Origin: Puia dinghuensis
GTDB taxonomy: Bacteria > Bacteroidota > Bacteroidia > Chitinophagales > Chitinophagaceae
Length of the DNA: 64,000 bases
NCBI GenBank assembly: GCA_026225275.1
Contig: JAMFSL010000219.1
Location: 1,459-65,458, forward strand
Reading direction: 5' to 3'
Shown here: piece after piece, positions 25,126 through 30,184 of the stretch
How the letters are laid out: every line of letters begins with the position of its first letter
How positions within the stretch are numbered: position 1 is the first letter of the stretch
Notes under the pieces: generated by a model
Database searches by the model: none
Told to the model about the DNA's origin: nothing
The model's input: the letters and a program-made list of their open reading frames with translations, nothing else
Position numbers and translations under genes: made by a program

Positions 25126-25326
25126 ATTTTTTTTTCAAACCTACGCATAATTGTGTAATGGACAATCGGTCACCCGCTTGATTAATTTATGGACTATATG
25201 GCAAAAGCCTTACCTTTATCGGCCTTTTTCGCGCCGCGCCATCCCGGCGTGGCAACTCAGTTATGATGAAGAACAATCCACGCACATGATGGCCAACAGC
25301 CTACATGAAGACAAACAGCCGCCATT

Positions 25327-26781
25327 ATGACAAACAACCGTAAGGTTAAGATAGCCGTTGCAGTTTCCTCCGAAGTGGGGCGGCTCAGGCGTGTCCTCGT
25401 CCACAGTCCCGACAGCGGGCTCGGCAAAGTGGTGCCTTCCAAAGCGCAGGACTGGCTTTTTGAAGACATCGTTCACCTGGATACTATCCGCCGCAAGGAG
25501 TATGACTTCTATACCAAGATCCTGTTGTATTTTCTGGACCCGGAAAAGATCCGTGGCCGCCTGGCAGAGATAGACCACGAACAGCAGCGGCGGGCCTTTT
25601 ACAAACCGGGCGATGAACAATTCTACCGCTCGGAAAAGGTGGTGGAACTGCAATGGTTGCTGGCCGATATCCTGACCAGCCATGAAATCAAGCTGAAACT
25701 GGTGGCTTCGGTCTGCGCCATCGAAGGCTGCTCCTACGACACGCAAAGGCAGCTGCAAGAATTGGACTCCGTCCAGCTGGCCAAGACCTTTATCAGCGGC
25801 TCGATGAATGACGACCGGATGCTGTTCGCCCCGATCCCGAATTTCATTTTTACCCGCGACATCGGCATTGTCATCAATCACCATGTACTGCTGAATAAAC
25901 CGGCCAAGAAGGCCCGCACCCGGGAAGCCCTGCTGGCAAAATATATCTTTTTCAATCATCCTTTGTTTGAGGAATATCACGACAAGATCATCGAACTGGC
26001 CGACACCCACCATCATTTCCTGCTGCCCAGGGAAGGTGATGACCACAAGGTCACCCTGGAAGGCGGAGATGTCATGGTCGTCAGCAAGGACCACCTGCTG
26101 ATCGGTGTCAGCGAACGCACCTCCCTGGAAGCGGCCCACCAGGCTATCAAGGTGCTGTTCGAGAAGAATGTGGTCAAGAAGATCACGATCATCCGAATTC
26201 CTAAGAAGCGGGATTTTATGCATATAGACACGATCTTCACCCAGATCAAGCGGAATGTCTGGATACTGCTGGGTACCTTCTCTAAAAAAGCCAACAAGCG
26301 GGAAGATGAAGACGAAGTGCAACGGATACTGGAAAATAATAAGAAAGAAGACAAGCTCCATATCATCCAGTTCAGGAAGAAGGACCCCGGTAATCCCGAA
26401 TATTTCGACAACCTCGAAGACCTCCTGACCGATATCAGCAAGAACGACCTGGAATGTACCGAAAAGGTAAAATTCATCTATTCGGGAAATAATGAATTCC
26501 CCTTCGATGCCCGCGAACAATGGACCGATTCCTGCAACCTGCTTGCGCTGAAAGAAGGCGTCGTGCTGGGATATGACCGCAACGATAAAACGGTGGAGGC
26601 CTTCAGAGCAGGTGGTTTCGACATCATTCATGTGGAAGAACTGATCGGTCGCCTGGAAAGAGGTGAGGCCAACCCCGACAACATGGAGAACACCCTCATC
26701 CTGATGCCTTCGGCAGAACTGTCCCGGGCCCGCGGCGGGTTTCATTGCATGAGTATGCCTTTGCATCGGGACAATCTTTGA
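25327..26781 (+). CDS. Arginine-deiminase-family (guanidino-group-modifying enzyme) protein, long form
   Basis: 484 aa. The N-terminus SEVGRLRRVLVHSP and the C-terminal catalytic-Cys motif GGFHCMSMPL are typical of ArcA-type enzymes. Confidence 0.7.
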   Translation: MTNNRKVKIAVAVSSEVGRLRRVLVHSPDSGLGKVVPSKAQDWLFEDIVHLDTIRRKEYDFYTKILLYFLDPEKIRGRLAEIDHEQQRRAFYKPGDEQFYRSEKVVELQWLLADILTSHEIKLKLVASVCAIEGCSYDTQRQLQELDSVQLAKTFISGSMNDDRMLFAPIPNFIFTRDIGIVINHHVLLNKPAKKARTREALLAKYIFFNHPLFEEYHDKIIELADTHHHFLLPREGDDHKVTLEGGDVMVVSKDHLLIGVSERTSLEAAHQAIKVLFEKNVVKKITIIRIPKKRDFMHIDTIFTQIKRNVWILLGTFSKKANKREDEDEVQRILENNKKEDKLHIIQFRKKDPGNPEYFDNLEDLLTDISKNDLECTEKVKFIYSGNNEFPFDAREQWTDSCNLLALKEGVVLGYDRNDKTVEAFRAGGFDIIHVEELIGRLERGEANPDNMENTLILMPSAELSRARGGFHCMSMPLHRDNL

Positions 26782-26788
26782 GCCAATT

Positions 26789-27709
26789 ATGCAAACAACT
26801 TCCCACATCCTGATGATACGGCCGGTGAATTTCAGCTTCAACGCTGAGACGGCGGTTAATAATGCTTTTCAGCGAGACCCCGGTGGCGCTGGTGACACCG
26901 ACGCTCAAAGAGAGGCGCTTGATGAATTCAACCACTTCGTGACCCTGCTGCGCGACAATGGTGTGGACGTAACCGTTATTGACGATACCCCTAAGCCTTA
27001 TACCCCCGACAGCATTTTTCCCAATAACTGGGTCTCCTTTCATGAGCAGGGGCTGGTATGCCTTTATCCAATGTTTGCCGTCAACCGCCGGCTGGAGCGG
27101 AAGCCTGTCGTCCTGGAACAGTTGGGACGCGCCTTTCGCATCGGGGAGACCCTGGATTTCAGCCACTATGAACAGGAAGGTATTTTCCTGGAAGGAACGG
27201 GAAGCATGGTGCTCGACAGGGATAACAAAATAGCGTATGCCTGCCTGTCTCCCCGGACAGACAAGAGCGTCCTGCTGGACTTTTGCGGGAAGACGGGTTA
27301 TACGCCGGAAGTGTTTGCGGCTACGGACAGCGCGCACCAGGCGATTTACCATACCAATGTCATGATGTGTGTCGCTGACCGTTATGTTGTGGTCTGCCTG
27401 GATTCATTGCCGGTCCCGGCCGAACGACAGCATCTGTCCGATACCATCCGATCTTCCGGGAAGGAGCTCATTACTATCAGTCTTCAGCAGATGGACCGGT
27501 TTGCCGGCAATATGCTGCAGGTGCATAACCGGCAGGGCGAACGGCTGTTGGTCATGTCTTCACAGGCCTATCACTCCCTCAGCCCGCAGCAGATCGGGCA
27601 GCTTTCTTCTTATAACCAAATCTTGCATTCTTCCCTTACCACTATCGAAACCAATGGCGGCGGAAGCGCGCGGTGTATGATGGCGGAGATCCATCTGGAG
27701 ACGTATTGA
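26789..27709 (+). CDS. Amidinotransferase-fold hydrolase, CtlX (citrulline utilization)-like
   Basis: 306 aa. The start TSHILMIRPVNFSFN and the C-terminal GGGSARCMMAEI catalytic-Cys motif fit this fold. It starts 8 nt after the ADI-like gene. Confidence 0.65.
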   Translation: MQTTSHILMIRPVNFSFNAETAVNNAFQRDPGGAGDTDAQREALDEFNHFVTLLRDNGVDVTVIDDTPKPYTPDSIFPNNWVSFHEQGLVCLYPMFAVNRRLERKPVVLEQLGRAFRIGETLDFSHYEQEGIFLEGTGSMVLDRDNKIAYACLSPRTDKSVLLDFCGKTGYTPEVFAATDSAHQAIYHTNVMMCVADRYVVVCLDSLPVPAERQHLSDTIRSSGKELITISLQQMDRFAGNMLQVHNRQGERLLVMSSQAYHSLSPQQIGQLSSYNQILHSSLTTIETNGGGSARCMMAEIHLETY

Positions 27710-27743: not shown

Positions 27744-27800
27744 TTTAAAGTTAATTTTGCGCGATAATTTTGGAGGAGTAATGAATAAATTAACTTTAAA
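27744..27800. promoter_or_regulatory. 14-bp perfect inverted repeat (TTTAAAGTTAATTT ... AAATTAACTTTAAA) directly upstream of the toxin-like gene; candidate operator
   Basis: 27744-27757 is the exact reverse complement of 27787-27800, with a 29-nt spacer. The right arm abuts the GTG at 27801. Confidence 0.4.
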
Positions 27801-28281
27801 GTGCATAACTTTGCTACGGTTCAGGAATTTGCTCGCTTTAGGACGGTGACATATTACACGTTGAAGGGCGAAGATGCAGCCTTGTCAGAAACGGATGATT
27901 TTCTTGCCAGAGTAAAACAAGTACCCCAATACGATAACCAAAGAAAACAATTGGTAAAGTCAATAGAGTATCTGGGGAATCATAAAGAAGGGGCAGCTTA
28001 TGAAGTATTCAGACATGAAAGAATTTGTGTGGCATTGCCACCCAAGGCGAAATACTCTGGACACGGACATTGACCTTCGTCTTTATTGTCATTGGGTGAA
28101 TAATCGGATTATGATACTCTATAATGGAGGAATCAAAACGACCCATCGCGCCCAGGATTGTCCAAATGTATCGCGTCATTTTTATAATGCGCAAAGTTGG
28201 ACGAAACAATTGATCGAAATAAGGATTGAAACAAGAGGACAAGACATAACGAATTTAGAAGAATTATACATTAAAAAATAA
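27801..28281 (+). pseudogene. Gp49/HigB-like (RelE-fold) toxin gene split by a +1 frameshift
   Basis: Two overlapping ORFs (27801..28073 in frame 0, 28000..28281 in frame 1) together give one toxin-like layout. The N-terminal part is ...VTYYTLKGE...DDFL...; the C-terminal part is DIDLRLYCHWVNNRIMILYNGGIKT. The frames must join near 28040-28060. Confidence 0.5.
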
Positions 28282-28286
28282 TAGTC

Positions 28287-28718
28287 ATGGCATCCAAAAT
28301 CTTTGAAGAAATGCTGAAGGAGGTCGATCCTGAAAACAGTCAATTCGTCGAAAAGAACATGGCAATTAGTTTTCAGGTCAGGCATATTCTCGCTGTCCAC
28401 CCGACGATCAATTCCCAGAAGGCTTTGGCACAGGCTTTGGGTAAAGAGCCCAGCGAGATCAGCAAATGGCTGAGCGGCCTGCACAACATCGGGCTGGAAA
28501 ACATCACCAAAATGGAGGTCGCTTTGGGACGCGACATCATCCTGACGGATGAACAGGCCAGGGAAAGGTATGACAGGCCGGCCGGAGGCTACCAGGTTTT
28601 CGAGGTCTCCCGTTATGCAGAAAAGGTGAACAACCAGGTACATCATCCCGGCTGGAGCGGCAAGAGAAATATTACCTATACCGCTATAGAGGGAAAAAAT
28701 TCCGGTTTACCACATTAA
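28287..28718 (+). CDS. XRE-family helix-turn-helix protein (HigA-like antitoxin) with a roughly 50-aa C-terminal tail
   Basis: 143 aa with the HTH SQKALAQALGKEPSEISKWLSGLHNIGLENITKMEVALG. It starts 5 nt after the toxin-like ORF. Confidence 0.65.
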   Translation: MASKIFEEMLKEVDPENSQFVEKNMAISFQVRHILAVHPTINSQKALAQALGKEPSEISKWLSGLHNIGLENITKMEVALGRDIILTDEQARERYDRPAGGYQVFEVSRYAEKVNNQVHHPGWSGKRNITYTAIEGKNSGLPH

Positions 28719-28726
28719 TCTGAGTC

Positions 28727-29164
28727 ATGGCGAAAAAGAAGTTCAACACCGGCACAATGGATTATCTCCATATACGGGATATTGTCTTTACCTATTCGAT
28801 GCCCGATGAGACCACTGTCCCGGAAAAAGAAGGCCATCCTACCCGGTATAGCATGGAAACCGTGAAAATGTTCAATATGGAACAGGAAGTCATCCGGATG
28901 GTCTTTACGATCGAGTTGGAAACTCAATTGGAATCCGCGAAAAAAATAAAGGCCATCTATACTACCGAACATCTATTCCAGGTGAAAGGTCTTTCCGATT
29001 GGGTCAGCAAGGCAGAAGAGAAATTTGTAGTGGATCATGAACTGAATGAGGCCTTGACCTTACAGGTCTATTCGACGGCCAGGGGAATGATCCATCAAAA
29101 ATTCAATGGCACATGGTTCTCGGATTTCGTCCTTCCCGTCGCAAAGTCAGCGGCATTGGATTAG
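28727..29164 (+). CDS. Hypothetical protein, candidate SecB-like chaperone
   Basis: 145 aa, starting 8 nt after the HTH gene. By eye its segments follow the SecB pattern. LHIRDIVFTYSMPDE compares with E. coli SecB FQIQRIYTKDISFEAPN. It then has VIRMVFTIELETQ, KAIYTTEHLFQVKG, a long helix, and FSDFVLPV compared with FPQLNLAPV. This is not verified by any search. Confidence 0.35.
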   Translation: MAKKKFNTGTMDYLHIRDIVFTYSMPDETTVPEKEGHPTRYSMETVKMFNMEQEVIRMVFTIELETQLESAKKIKAIYTTEHLFQVKGLSDWVSKAEEKFVVDHELNEALTLQVYSTARGMIHQKFNGTWFSDFVLPVAKSAALD

Positions 29165-29176
29165 GTTCATGGTCGC

Positions 29177-30184
29177 TCAGAATAAAGTCGGATGGGCCGA
29201 GGGAGGTTCTTCACTGAATAAATGAGGTGGTTTTAATGAAATGCCCAATACGGCGTTGAAACGCTCTACTGCATACAGGCAAAGCTCGGGGGAGTATAGC
29301 TCATCATGGTCATGAACAAAAAAATAGATCTCCCGTAATCCTTTCCCGACCCAGGCGCTTAGCCGGTCCGCCCACTCGTCGATACGTTGAAAATCGGTCG
29401 GATGCAGCTGGTTGGCTACGAAACGGATGAAGGCGAAGGGAGCTGTCAGCCGCATATGCAGCACATCGCGGCGGCCCGGCGTATCGGTGATGACGGCGCA
29501 GACGCCCAGTTCGCGGAATAATTCCCAGGTTGCCCGCACGGCGGCCGTTCCAAACCAGCCCTCATGCCGTAACTCTACAGCCAGCCGGAAATTACGGGGC
29601 AGGCGGCGGAGGTAGTCTTCCAGTGTAGCAGCCCGGGTGGGTGCAAAGGTTTCCGCCAGCTGAAGAAATGACGGTCCCAGTGTACCGCCAAAACATTGCA
29701 TATGGTCGATAAACAACTGCGTGTCATGATCTGCATTCACGAGTTGTAATTCGTGACTGATCGTATTGGAGACCTTTGGACAGAACCGGAAGGACGGTTC
29801 CACGAGCGATGCCCATTTTTCAATCACCGGTTTGGGCTGAAGATTATACCAGAGCGCATTGAGCTCGATCGAATTGAACTGGCGCCCATATTGCTGCAAA
29901 AAATCCTTTGGCTTCGTTCCTCTGGGATATACCTTACCGATCCAATTGGGTTGGCCCCAGCCCGTTCCGCCGACATAGCAACGAAGAGAGCCCGGATCCG
30001 TCCCGGTGTCCTGCGCCAATACCTGCCCCGTCATGACAGCATCCCCAGGTAGAGAAAAATTAATTTTTTCTATATGTTGTATTCTGCCGAATTCCATCGG
30101 GTTCTTTTTCTGCTTAACAATAAATTGATCTGTCAGAAAGGAGGGATCGGCACAGATCCTTCCCATCTGTTGTTCGGGATTCAA
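29177..30184 (-). CDS. DUF72 (YecE/UPF0759) family protein
   Basis: 335 aa with a DUF72-like core (YVGGTGWGQPNWIGKVYP...FNSIELNALWY...VELRHEGWF) after an N-terminal extension of about 70 aa. Confidence 0.75.
   Translation of the reverse strand: MNPEQQMGRICADPSFLTDQFIVKQKKNPMEFGRIQHIEKINFSLPGDAVMTGQVLAQDTGTDPGSLRCYVGGTGWGQPNWIGKVYPRGTKPKDFLQQYGRQFNSIELNALWYNLQPKPVIEKWASLVEPSFRFCPKVSNTISHELQLVNADHDTQLFIDHMQCFGGTLGPSFLQLAETFAPTRAATLEDYLRRLPRNFRLAVELRHEGWFGTAAVRATWELFRELGVCAVITDTPGRRDVLHMRLTAPFAFIRFVANQLHPTDFQRIDEWADRLSAWVGKGLREIYFFVHDHDELYSPELCLYAVERFNAVLGISLKPPHLFSEEPPSAHPTLF

Follow-up and report, generated by a model that had tools for sequence, protein, structure and literature searches.

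Tripartite toxin-antitoxin-chaperone (TAC) systems couple the availability of a chaperone to the release of a toxin and have recently been shown to sense phage structural proteins. The toxins HigB and MqsR are RNases, and CmdT is an ADP-ribosyltransferase. The closest described systems are HigB1-HigA1-SecB(TA) of Mycobacterium tuberculosis (Rv1955-Rv1956-Rv1957) and the HigBAC, MqsRAC, and CmdTAC systems of Escherichia coli, all of which include a SecB-like chaperone; the anti-phage TACs of E. coli are located on mobile elements and beside defence genes. The antitoxins of TAC systems carry variable C-terminal chaperone-addiction (ChAD) extensions (PMC5105189). In addition, 11 “AC” systems lack a toxin altogether, and toxin loss has been proposed as one possible origin of such systems (Sala et al. 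2013, PMC3581621).

A three-gene cassette of Puia dinghuensis, located in the window (the whole 64,000-nt stretch of DNA that was analysed), is probably a TAC-type operon of an uncharacterised family that occurs in Bacteroidota (on two plasmids and in a Chitinophagaceae lineage) and on unassigned metagenome contigs. It shares with the M. tuberculosis system the gene order toxin, antitoxin, chaperone, an XRE-HTH antitoxin whose C-terminus is extended by about 45-50 residues with aromatic and basic stretches, and a third protein with a predicted SecB fold, whose model matches the 5mtw chains with E 1e-5 and TM 0.57-0.66. By contrast, Pfam SecB does not detect the third protein, whose identity to its mycobacterial counterpart is only 10-12%, no similarity to HigB1/Gp49 (PF05973) could be detected for the toxin (about 159 aa), the host belongs to the Bacteroidota, and the local toxin is a pseudogene.

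The tripartite organization with a SecB-like chaperone is also shared with the TACs of E. coli, and some relatives of the window triad resemble the anti-phage representatives in their genomic location. The E. coli systems differ, however, in that they employ other toxin families, and the window copy lies in a conserved housekeeping neighbourhood. Like the toxin-less AC systems (PMC3581621), the window locus combines an antitoxin and a SecB-like chaperone with no functional toxin, but here the decay is still in progress and the toxin reading frame remains recognisable.

Layout and conservation of the triad

The three genes are co-directional on the plus strand, with gaps of 5 nt (28282-28286) and 8 nt (28719-28726), and are flanked by a CtlX-like gene and a convergent DUF72 gene (Table 1). 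The measured coordinates thus agree with the arrangement given in a preliminary description of this DNA, and all peptides quoted there are present in the sequence. Of the GC mosaic that it had reported from hand counts, the pattern of a low-GC toxin and a higher-GC antitoxin gene held, but the values (toxin, 33%; antitoxin, 57%; CtlX-like gene, 57%) did not. The measured GC content is 25% in the leader, 39% in the toxin gene, 49.5% in the antitoxin gene, 45% in the third gene, and 54% in the CtlX-like gene, with 52% for the entire window. The contrast between toxin and antitoxin genes recurs in all orthologous copies, which makes it a property of the module and not a mark of recent transfer at this site. 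The neighbourhood of the window copy consists of conserved housekeeping genes and is not part of a mobile element. Scans for tRNAs and Rfam families near the locus yielded nothing relevant.

Table 1. Coordinates of the cassette, its leader elements, and the flanking genes in the window.
Feature	Position	Strand	Remarks
DDAH/CtlX-like gene	26789-27709		5' neighbour of the cassette; PF19420, E 5e-99
Left arm TTTAAAGTTAATT of a perfect 13-bp inverted repeat	27744..27756	.	AT-rich leader; candidate operator half-site for the HTH antitoxin
TAATTTTG, match to -7 promoter element	27765..27772	+	Between the repeat arms; direct reading of the sequence
Right arm AATTAACTTTAAA of the 13-bp inverted repeat	27788..27800	.	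Abuts the toxin GTG start
Toxin-position pseudogene	27801..28281	+	GTG start; family about 159 aa
Antitoxin, XRE-type HTH, 143 aa	28287..28718	+	Pfam HTH_3 (PF01381), E 3e-7
Candidate chaperone-addiction segment GGYQVFEVSRYAEKV	28584..28628	+	Antitoxin residues 100-114
Second aromatic/basic stretch WSGKRNITY	28653-28679		Antitoxin tail
SecB-fold protein, 145 aa, putative dedicated antitoxin chaperone	28727..29164	+	AlphaFold2 and Foldseek
DUF72 gene	29177-30184	-	Convergent; 3' neighbour of the cassette

The order toxin-antitoxin-chaperone is conserved in all of the approximately 30 related loci examined, with the homology of each component verified by HMMs. It is kept in 20 of the 20 metagenome loci that were found via toxin motifs on contigs reaching far enough, and occurs also on plasmid pHsw1 of Hymenobacter swuensis, on a plasmid of B. 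thetaiotaomicron, and in distant metagenome contexts. Every triad contains an antitoxin homolog. At 50% identity, the family of the third gene falls into 386 clusters; triads were present in every informative context sampled from this family, and no homolog without adjoining toxin-like and HTH genes was found wherever the contig allowed a check. The three genes, which the preliminary description had taken to be a module, thus form a unit among the checkable contigs.

A search with the alignment of close homologs of the third gene retrieved only one GTDB genome, the Chitinophagaceae MAG palsa_949. All three genes have been under purifying selection, with dN/dS values of 0.08-0.26 (antitoxin, 0.10-0.22; third gene, 0.12-0.26). 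Some relatives have a type I HsdR gene together with IS66, a DUF4041 gene, or helicases as neighbours, and the presence of such restriction and defence genes is compatible with a role in defence.

All proteins of the window triad match a single PADLOC candidate system, PDC-M64, which comprises the same set of gene families. The matches include the frame-repaired toxin (PDLC04755/04752; full length, 1e-36 and 3e-29), the antitoxin (PDLC04757-62; 1e-23 to 1e-24), and the third protein (PDLC04763; 1.5e-16). The PDC-x entries of PADLOC are unpublished, unvalidated candidates (PMC11811056), and the literature yielded no paper that mentions PDC-M64, identifies it as a TAC, or describes its third gene as SecB-like.

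The leader upstream of the toxin gene contains a conserved inverted repeat and a promoter-like element. The left arm of the inverted repeat is invariant or nearly so in six orthologous leaders, and the corresponding coding regions are only 41-89% identical; the repeat is kept even between lineages with protein identities of just 41-70% and may represent the operator of the HTH antitoxin. The element between the arms matches the -7 promoter consensus of Bacteroidota (TAnnTTTG) and is kept with zero or one mismatch in five of the six leaders. A sigma-70 promoter scan of the leader gave nothing above shuffle expectation.

The SecB-fold protein and the antitoxin tail

The third protein is predicted to have a SecB fold. 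Its AlphaFold2 model, which is based on an alignment of 131 sequences (pLDDT 92.5, pTM 0.85), consists of four long strands, a small hairpin, and a long helix. In a Foldseek search of this model against the PDB, ranks 1-19 are all occupied by SecB (1qyn, 1ozb, 1fx3, 5jtl) or Rv1957 (5mtw), with E values of 2e-6 to 1e-4 and TM scores of 0.55-0.76, and the best matches among viral structures are phage “SecB” proteins. The SecB-like succession of strands and helix that had originally been traced by eye is therefore reproduced by the predicted secondary structure and by the structural search. A first model, which was built from 16 close homologs (pLDDT 63.6) and placed actin-capping protein at the top and SecB at rank 44, was replaced by the 131-sequence model.

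Sequence profiles give a different picture. The third protein has no match in NCBIfam or Pfam, including PF02556 (SecB), the profile that had been named as a check in the preliminary description. Among its 131 relatives, a single one matches PF02556, and only weakly (E 0.006), and searches of PDB sequences with profiles of the family found no SecB. An hhalign comparison of the family profile with three SecB sequences produced a colinear alignment over 124 columns (P 0.011; controls, 0.12-0.34), which pairs the YSTaRG motif of the family with FPYARE of SecB.

The protein shares with the canonical SecB of E. coli and Haemophilus influenzae (PF02556) the same four-stranded sheet and long helix (TM 0.63-0.76) and a colinear helix motif (FPYARE...GTFP..LAP in SecB, YSTxRG...GT...LP in the family). 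By contrast, the sequence similarity is at noise level, and the members of the family are, in all contexts that could be checked, part of a triad and not solitary. With a SecB fold obtained for the third protein and no solitary homolog encountered, the TAC-type reading put forward in the preliminary description is supported.

The second gene encodes an XRE-type HTH protein followed by approximately 50 additional C-terminal residues with an aromatic/hydrophobic patch, as had been recognised at the outset. The HTH_3 match is above the gathering score and covers residues 43-84 (28413-28538). The conserved domain spans residues 1-93, and the variable tail comprises residues 94-143 and includes the patch GGYQVFEVSRYAEKV. 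Variable tails of 29-66 aa are present on every antitoxin examined, all of them encoded in chaperone-bearing loci, and the PDC-M64 antitoxin models of PADLOC comprise in some cases 93-100 positions and in others 123-135, a difference that hints that chaperone-independent antitoxins may lack the tail. The only recurring feature of the otherwise unrelated tails across the family is an alternating hydrophobic/aromatic segment located directly after the HTH domain.

In the window protein, this part of the tail resembles the aromatic and basic SecB-binding motifs of HigA1 from M. tuberculosis (PMC5105189, PMC6377645). Judged from its sequence, the tail is consistent with a chaperone-addiction element, and it may bind the SecB-fold protein. 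The presence of the tail, its variability, and the order of the three genes all match published properties of TAC systems (PMC3581621, PMC5105189).

Decay of the putative toxin gene

The first gene of the window triad is split over two frames (ORFs 27801-28073 and 28000-28281). An alignment with the DNA of four relatives, all of which read AAATATCTGG at this position, locates an extra C at 28055, which causes a frameshift and a premature TGA at 28071-28073. The gene is therefore not the single open reading frame it had been taken for, nor does it begin at 27744, which is part of the leader; the GTG start is at 27801.

The first gene has 42 homologs, most of which encode 159 aa. The frame-repaired protein has no meaningful match in Pfam, NCBIfam, or PHROGs, and the same holds for 32 of its relatives in Pfam; a profile search of PDB sequences with the toxin family was empty, and no homologs were found in a phage collection. 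Comparisons of the family with RelE, HigB, HigB2, YoeB, ParE, and MqsR by hhalign gave probabilities below 1%, as did the comparison with the HigB1/Gp49 profile, which is a weak negative because both profiles are shallow (Neff ~3). The Gp49/HigB-type RelE fold (PF05973) initially proposed for this protein is thus backed by none of the sequence or profile tests that were run. By eye, the stretch LRLYCHWV..VVILYNGGIKT resembles the core strands of HigB1 (FRVLFFRW..VALTAFYKNQQKT), which is a lead only. The position of the gene and its recurrent loss suggest that it encodes a toxin.

Lesions of the toxin gene, counted only if verified in the DNA or by an internal deletion, have arisen independently at least seven times (in the window, the L001 group, L029/P0206, L042, L045, P0204, and P0194). 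One of these lesions is present in at least 40 independent contigs, and three of the four in-frame deletions (P0194, P0204, and P0206) take out the same central segment. Not every toxin call of 122 aa represents a lesion; in locus L046, the gene is intact and starts with GTG, and the gene caller had chosen an internal Met. Antitoxin and chaperone genes are intact wherever the DNA of the locus was examined (the window, the L001 group, L029, L042, and L045). The repeated loss of the first gene alone, with the second and third genes kept, is the pattern that a toxin and the proteins neutralising it would be expected to show.

At the same site in the chromosome, some relatives carry an intact toxin ortholog, among them the closest one (L019), whose toxin is 89% identical. 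The window locus is most likely a TAC-type module that is decaying to an antitoxin-chaperone remnant, and with its toxin broken, the site cannot function as a TAC at present.

A sequencing or assembly error in a genome that actually carries an intact, functional three-gene system is an unlikely explanation of the frameshift. The exact sequence is represented by one assembly and the encoded third protein by a single contig, the toxin of the closest relative is intact at the high identity given above, and if the extra base is disregarded, the gene has an undisturbed frame and retains the conserved residues of its family. However, the extra C is located outside a homopolymer (AAATA[C]TCTGG), and the flanking genes for ADI, the DDAH-like protein, DUF72, PFK, and PK are full length compared to their orthologs, indicating that the assembly is not indel-prone. 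Moreover, lesions restricted to the toxin are common in the family, including the one shared by the many independent contigs.

Possible functions and implications

Somewhat less probable still than an assembly error is a reading of the triad as a defence or regulatory system of three components, with the SecB-fold protein acting as a phage-protein sensor or adaptor, or as the partner of an effector, and with a first gene that may encode no classical toxin. PADLOC lists the triad only as an unvalidated defence candidate (PMC11811056), the first gene lacks a recognisable toxin domain, the SecB family of the triad falls outside Pfam SecB, and in characterised TACs, the chaperone is itself the phage-sensing element (bioRxiv 10.1101/2024.02.24.581848), so that the roles of sensor and chaperone are not exclusive. 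By contrast, the gene order, the HTH antitoxin with its variable tail, the SecB fold, and the tight spacing match TAC systems in every testable respect, and the selective loss of the first gene has occurred repeatedly while the other two were retained.

It is highly improbable that the third gene product serves the host as a general export or holdase chaperone of the SecB type and that the gene simply adjoins an ordinary two-gene toxin-antitoxin pair: although the TAC/AC chaperones of M. tuberculosis and M. smegmatis can replace SecB in E. coli (PMC3581621) and the gene has a conserved chromosomal position across the Chitinophagaceae lineage, it always follows the same toxin and HTH pair in the roughly 30 loci, including those on plasmids and in unrelated metagenome contexts, the informative sampled contexts of its 386-cluster family are all triads, and a survey of 2015 lists only nine Pfam-type SecBs in Bacteroidetes (PMC4361572).

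For the TAC-type module, a mechanism can be proposed by analogy with HigBAC of M. tuberculosis and HigBAC/CmdTAC of E. coli, which would extend to the toxicity of the first gene product, its neutralisation, the binding of the tail by the chaperone, autoregulation, and a role in defence. In a Chitinophagaceae lineage, the triad would have become a fixed part of the chromosome at a site between the CtlX-like and the DUF72 gene, and all three proteins would be produced from one transcript that starts in the AT-rich leader. The HTH antitoxin would bind and neutralise the toxin encoded upstream and would probably also repress the operon via the conserved 13-bp inverted repeat, whose arms flank the promoter and whose right arm borders the start codon. 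The variable C-terminal tail would render the antitoxin unstable unless held by the SecB-fold protein; titration of the chaperone by a phage structural protein or under stress would then release the toxin. In the genome of the window, the toxin gene is dead owing to the extra C, and the remaining antitoxin-chaperone pair is still under purifying selection.

A possible, still tentative extension is that PDC-M64 represents an unrecognised, Bacteroidota-wide class of TACs with a chaperone outside Pfam SecB and maybe a new toxin family, possibly with a new fold or activity and not a divergent RelE. Its chromosomal copies would have been repeatedly disarmed by frameshifts and in-frame deletions, giving rise to AC pairs that might function as anti-addiction or immunity modules.

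If the TAC-type reading is correct, the class would reach the Bacteroidota, a phylum with only nine Pfam-type SecBs in the 2015 survey (PMC4361572), and a large SecB-fold family missed by sequence profiles would join the known relatives of SecB. An uncharacterised family of toxins would become accessible through a clear genetic handle, and the unexplained PADLOC candidate PDC-M64 would gain a mechanistic hypothesis. For the annotation of the window genome, the gain is modest and consists of one pseudogene and of names for two genes (HTH antitoxin and SecB-like chaperone). The series of copies that have been disarmed naturally at a single site in the chromosome also offers a convenient view of toxin-antitoxin modules that are decaying into antitoxin-chaperone pairs.

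Organization and occurrence of the cassette

The locus is most likely a toxin-antitoxin-chaperone (TAC)-type cassette in a Bacteroidota genome. As the preliminary description had it, three co-directional reading frames lie in close succession between a CtlX-like and a DUF72 gene, and its central idea of a TAC module holds, both in the predicted SecB fold recovered by Foldseek for the third product and in the linkage of its gene to adjacent toxin-like and helix-turn-helix (HTH) genes. The GC content is 25% in the leader, 39% in the toxin gene, 49.5% in the antitoxin gene, and 45% in the third gene (window, 52%); the hand counts first reported for the toxin and antitoxin genes were too extreme. 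Since the same gradient is seen in five orthologous copies, it is a property of the module and no sign of recent transfer into the Puia genome.

Features of the cassette and its flanks (window coordinates)
Feature	Position	Sequence or size	Remarks
DDAH/CtlX-like gene	26789-27709		upstream flank of the triad; PF19420, E 5e-99
Left arm of perfect 13-bp inverted repeat	27744-27756	TTTAAAGTTAATT	in AT-rich leader
Promoter-like element	27765-27772	TAATTTTG	between the repeat arms
Right arm of perfect 13-bp inverted repeat	27788-27800	AATTAACTTTAAA	touches the GTG start
Toxin-position gene (first)	27801-28281		GTG start at 27801; split over two frames
Antitoxin gene (second)	28287-28718	143 aa	5 nt after first gene
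Predicted SecB-fold gene (third)	28727-29164	145 aa	8 nt after second gene
DUF72 gene	29177-30184		minus strand, convergent; downstream flank of the triad

In six lineages, with protein identities of only 41-89%, both arms of the leader repeat are conserved and the spacer varies. The arms bracket an element that matches the Bacteroidota -7 promoter consensus, and the right arm abuts the start codon, a layout which suggests autorepression of the operon by the HTH antitoxin. Directly upstream of the cassette, an arginine deiminase (ADI)-family gene (PF02274) adjoins the DDAH/CtlX-like gene (25327-27709 for both); a 526-aa antisense reading frame overlapping the ADI gene (25261-26841) is probably spurious.

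PADLOC already lists the triad as an unexplained candidate system, PDC-M64, whose models match all three proteins (toxin, 1e-36; antitoxin, 1e-24; chaperone, 1.5e-16). The PDC-x entries of PADLOC are unpublished candidates (PMC11811056), and a literature search found no paper mentioning PDC-M64. In keeping with the module first proposed, the three genes recur as a unit. Distant relatives of the toxin or chaperone occur in identical order on unrelated metagenome contigs, and the triad is present on plasmid pHsw1 of Hymenobacter swuensis and on a plasmid of Bacteroides thetaiotaomicron, where RefSeq labels the genes hypothetical, HTH regulator, and hypothetical. Toxin motifs retrieved 24 metagenome loci. 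In all 20 with a sufficiently long contig, the antitoxin and SecB-like genes follow the toxin; the remaining four stop within the antitoxin gene or directly behind it.

Some distant copies have other neighbors: a type I restriction R subunit and an IS66 transposase (L010, 938-3934), a DUF4041 protein (L021, 148-1548), or, on a megaplasmid, large helicases (L020, 1-2754 and 6162-6339). DUF4041 is a domain reported in defence systems of E. coli. These contexts look like defence islands and differ from the housekeeping setting of the window copy.

The predicted SecB fold and the antitoxin tail

The third protein has no match in Pfam or NCBIfam, and a word-indexed search found only 18 close homologs; searching 1.84 billion representatives with a profile yielded 386 clusters (E ≤ 1e-3), of which the best 150 are mostly 140-165 aa long. 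A shallow alignment gave a poor model (pLDDT 63.6), whose fold search was uninformative. With 131 diverse relatives, the predicted structure (pLDDT 92.5, pTM 0.85) comprises four long strands, one short hairpin, and a helix of 22 residues, and ranks 1-19 of a Foldseek search against the PDB are exclusively SecB (E. coli 1qyn, H. influenzae 1fx3/1ozb, 5jtl) or Rv1957, the TAC chaperone of M. tuberculosis (5mtw), with E values of 2e-6 to 1e-4 and TM scores up to 0.76. On this model, the third protein is predicted to have a SecB fold, bearing out the pattern first noted by eye. The sequence-level relationship is marginal: the Pfam SecB profile, named initially as a check, does not match the protein itself and matches only one of the 131 relatives (E 0.006), searches of PDB sequences with the family were empty, and hhalign against three SecB sequences gave a colinear alignment of 124 columns (P 0.011; unrelated controls, 0.12-0.34) that places the family-invariant YSTxRG on FPYARE of SecB. 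Among viral proteins, the top fold matches are phage products that bear a SecB annotation. Some uncultured siphoviruses in BFVD encode SecB-fold proteins matching the model (A0A8S5U130, E 4e-6; A0A8S5P8E8, E 1e-3); such phage-borne proteins could belong to TACs carried by phages or serve as decoys against those of the host.

The second product is an HTH protein with a C-terminal extension, as described initially. Pfam HTH_3 matches residues 43-84, and residues 1-93 are conserved across the family; the tail beyond them (29-66 residues) has no conserved sequence. The sole recurring feature of the tail is an alternating hydrophobic/aromatic, strand-like stretch just past the conserved domain (YQVFEVSRY in the window; YVTLKVSA, FVTLKVYI, and IVMFPISV in relatives), which coincides with the aromatic/hydrophobic patch already flagged; a second, aromatic/basic stretch (WSGKRNITY) lies farther along the window tail. 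Known TAC antitoxins likewise have variable C-terminal extensions with aromatic and basic SecB-binding motifs, such as WHRLSSYR in M. tuberculosis HigA1, with key residues W108, R110, and Y114 (PMC5105189, PMC6377645). By analogy, the tail is a candidate chaperone-binding element.

The PDC-M64 antitoxin models fall into two lengths, 123-135 positions (PDLC04757-59, B gene) and 93-100 positions (PDLC04760-62, C gene). On the window antitoxin, the short models cover only residues 1-91; they may represent tail-less antitoxins in chaperone-free arrangements. In one marine lineage (L037, 2988-3767; L038, 822-1601), the antitoxin has been duplicated in tandem, a single reading frame of 260 aa holding two HTH modules, and it still lies between a toxin homolog and a SecB-like homolog.

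The putative toxin family and its recurrent decay

The first frame of the toxin gene ends at 28073, and the remainder continues in the next frame. In a DNA alignment with four relatives, the split is caused by a single extra C at 28055, where the window reads AAATA[C]TCTGG and all relatives read AAATATCTGG. Because the extra C lies outside any homopolymer and the flanking genes are all full length, the frameshift is probably real and the toxin a pseudogene, which would make the locus an antitoxin-chaperone remnant.

The repaired product (159 aa) forms, with 42 homologs, a well-conserved family with the invariant motifs FR.E...ALPP, DLRLYC, and NGG.KT...Q.C.NV. Searches of Pfam, NCBIfam, PHROGs, and PDB sequences gave no meaningful match, and profile comparisons with RelE, HigB, HigB2, YoeB, ParE, MqsR, and HigB1/Gp49 were all negative, leaving the original Gp49/HigB assignment unsupported. 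By any sequence test, the family is not HigB, MqsR, HicA, or CmdT; a RelE-type fold is a lead. TACs are modular, with diverse toxins. Public gene calls often begin at an internal Met, giving 122 aa (e.g., P0202 and P0205), even where the reading frame is unbroken from the GTG start onward (L046, 2501-2869), so database entries understate the length of these proteins.

The triad occupies the same chromosomal position (ADI, DDAH-like, triad, DUF72, PFK, PK) in close relatives, among them the Chitinophagaceae MAG palsa_949 and Puia sp. GCA_035555335.1, indicating that the insertion is old and vertically inherited; the neighborhood of ADI, DDAH/CtlX-like, DUF72, PFK, and pyruvate kinase genes is itself conserved across Chitinophagaceae relatives. 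The dN/dS ratio of the toxin is 0.08-0.11, that of the antitoxin 0.10-0.22, and that of the chaperone 0.12-0.26. Between the window/L019 and L009/L001 pairs, the toxins are 64-68% identical with saturated dS, whereas the antitoxins are 83-89% and the chaperones 77-85% identical (dS 0.6-0.9). The relationships of the toxin genes conflict with those of their partners, which suggests either that recombination exchanged the toxin end of the module or that this end has evolved at a much higher rate.

Intact toxin genes are present in L007, L009, L011, L019, and L046. The L001 group (at least 40 contigs) carries a lesion different from that in the window, a 1-nt deletion in codon 3; L042 has a frameshift, and L045 combines a 39-aa deletion with a frameshift, its sister L036 being intact. 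Across the family, in-frame deletions of 32-41 aa have arisen independently four times (P0194; P0204; P0206/L029, 2477-2854; L045, 1551-1886), each leaving an open reading frame. The first three remove the same central region with the invariant FR.E residues, P0206 also losing the ALPP motif; that of L045 removes the adjacent ALPP...NGG.KT core. The shortened proteins might retain a role, for instance in co-repression or translational coupling. Beside the broken toxins of L029, L042, and L045, whose locus DNA was examined, both partner genes (antitoxin and chaperone) are intact. This toxin-only loss matches the toxin-less antitoxin-chaperone systems that make up 11 of 60 TAC-like loci (PMC3581621). 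More interesting than this locus is the family as a whole, in which a large group of SecB-fold proteins escapes Pfam, the toxin is unassigned, and disarming recurs.
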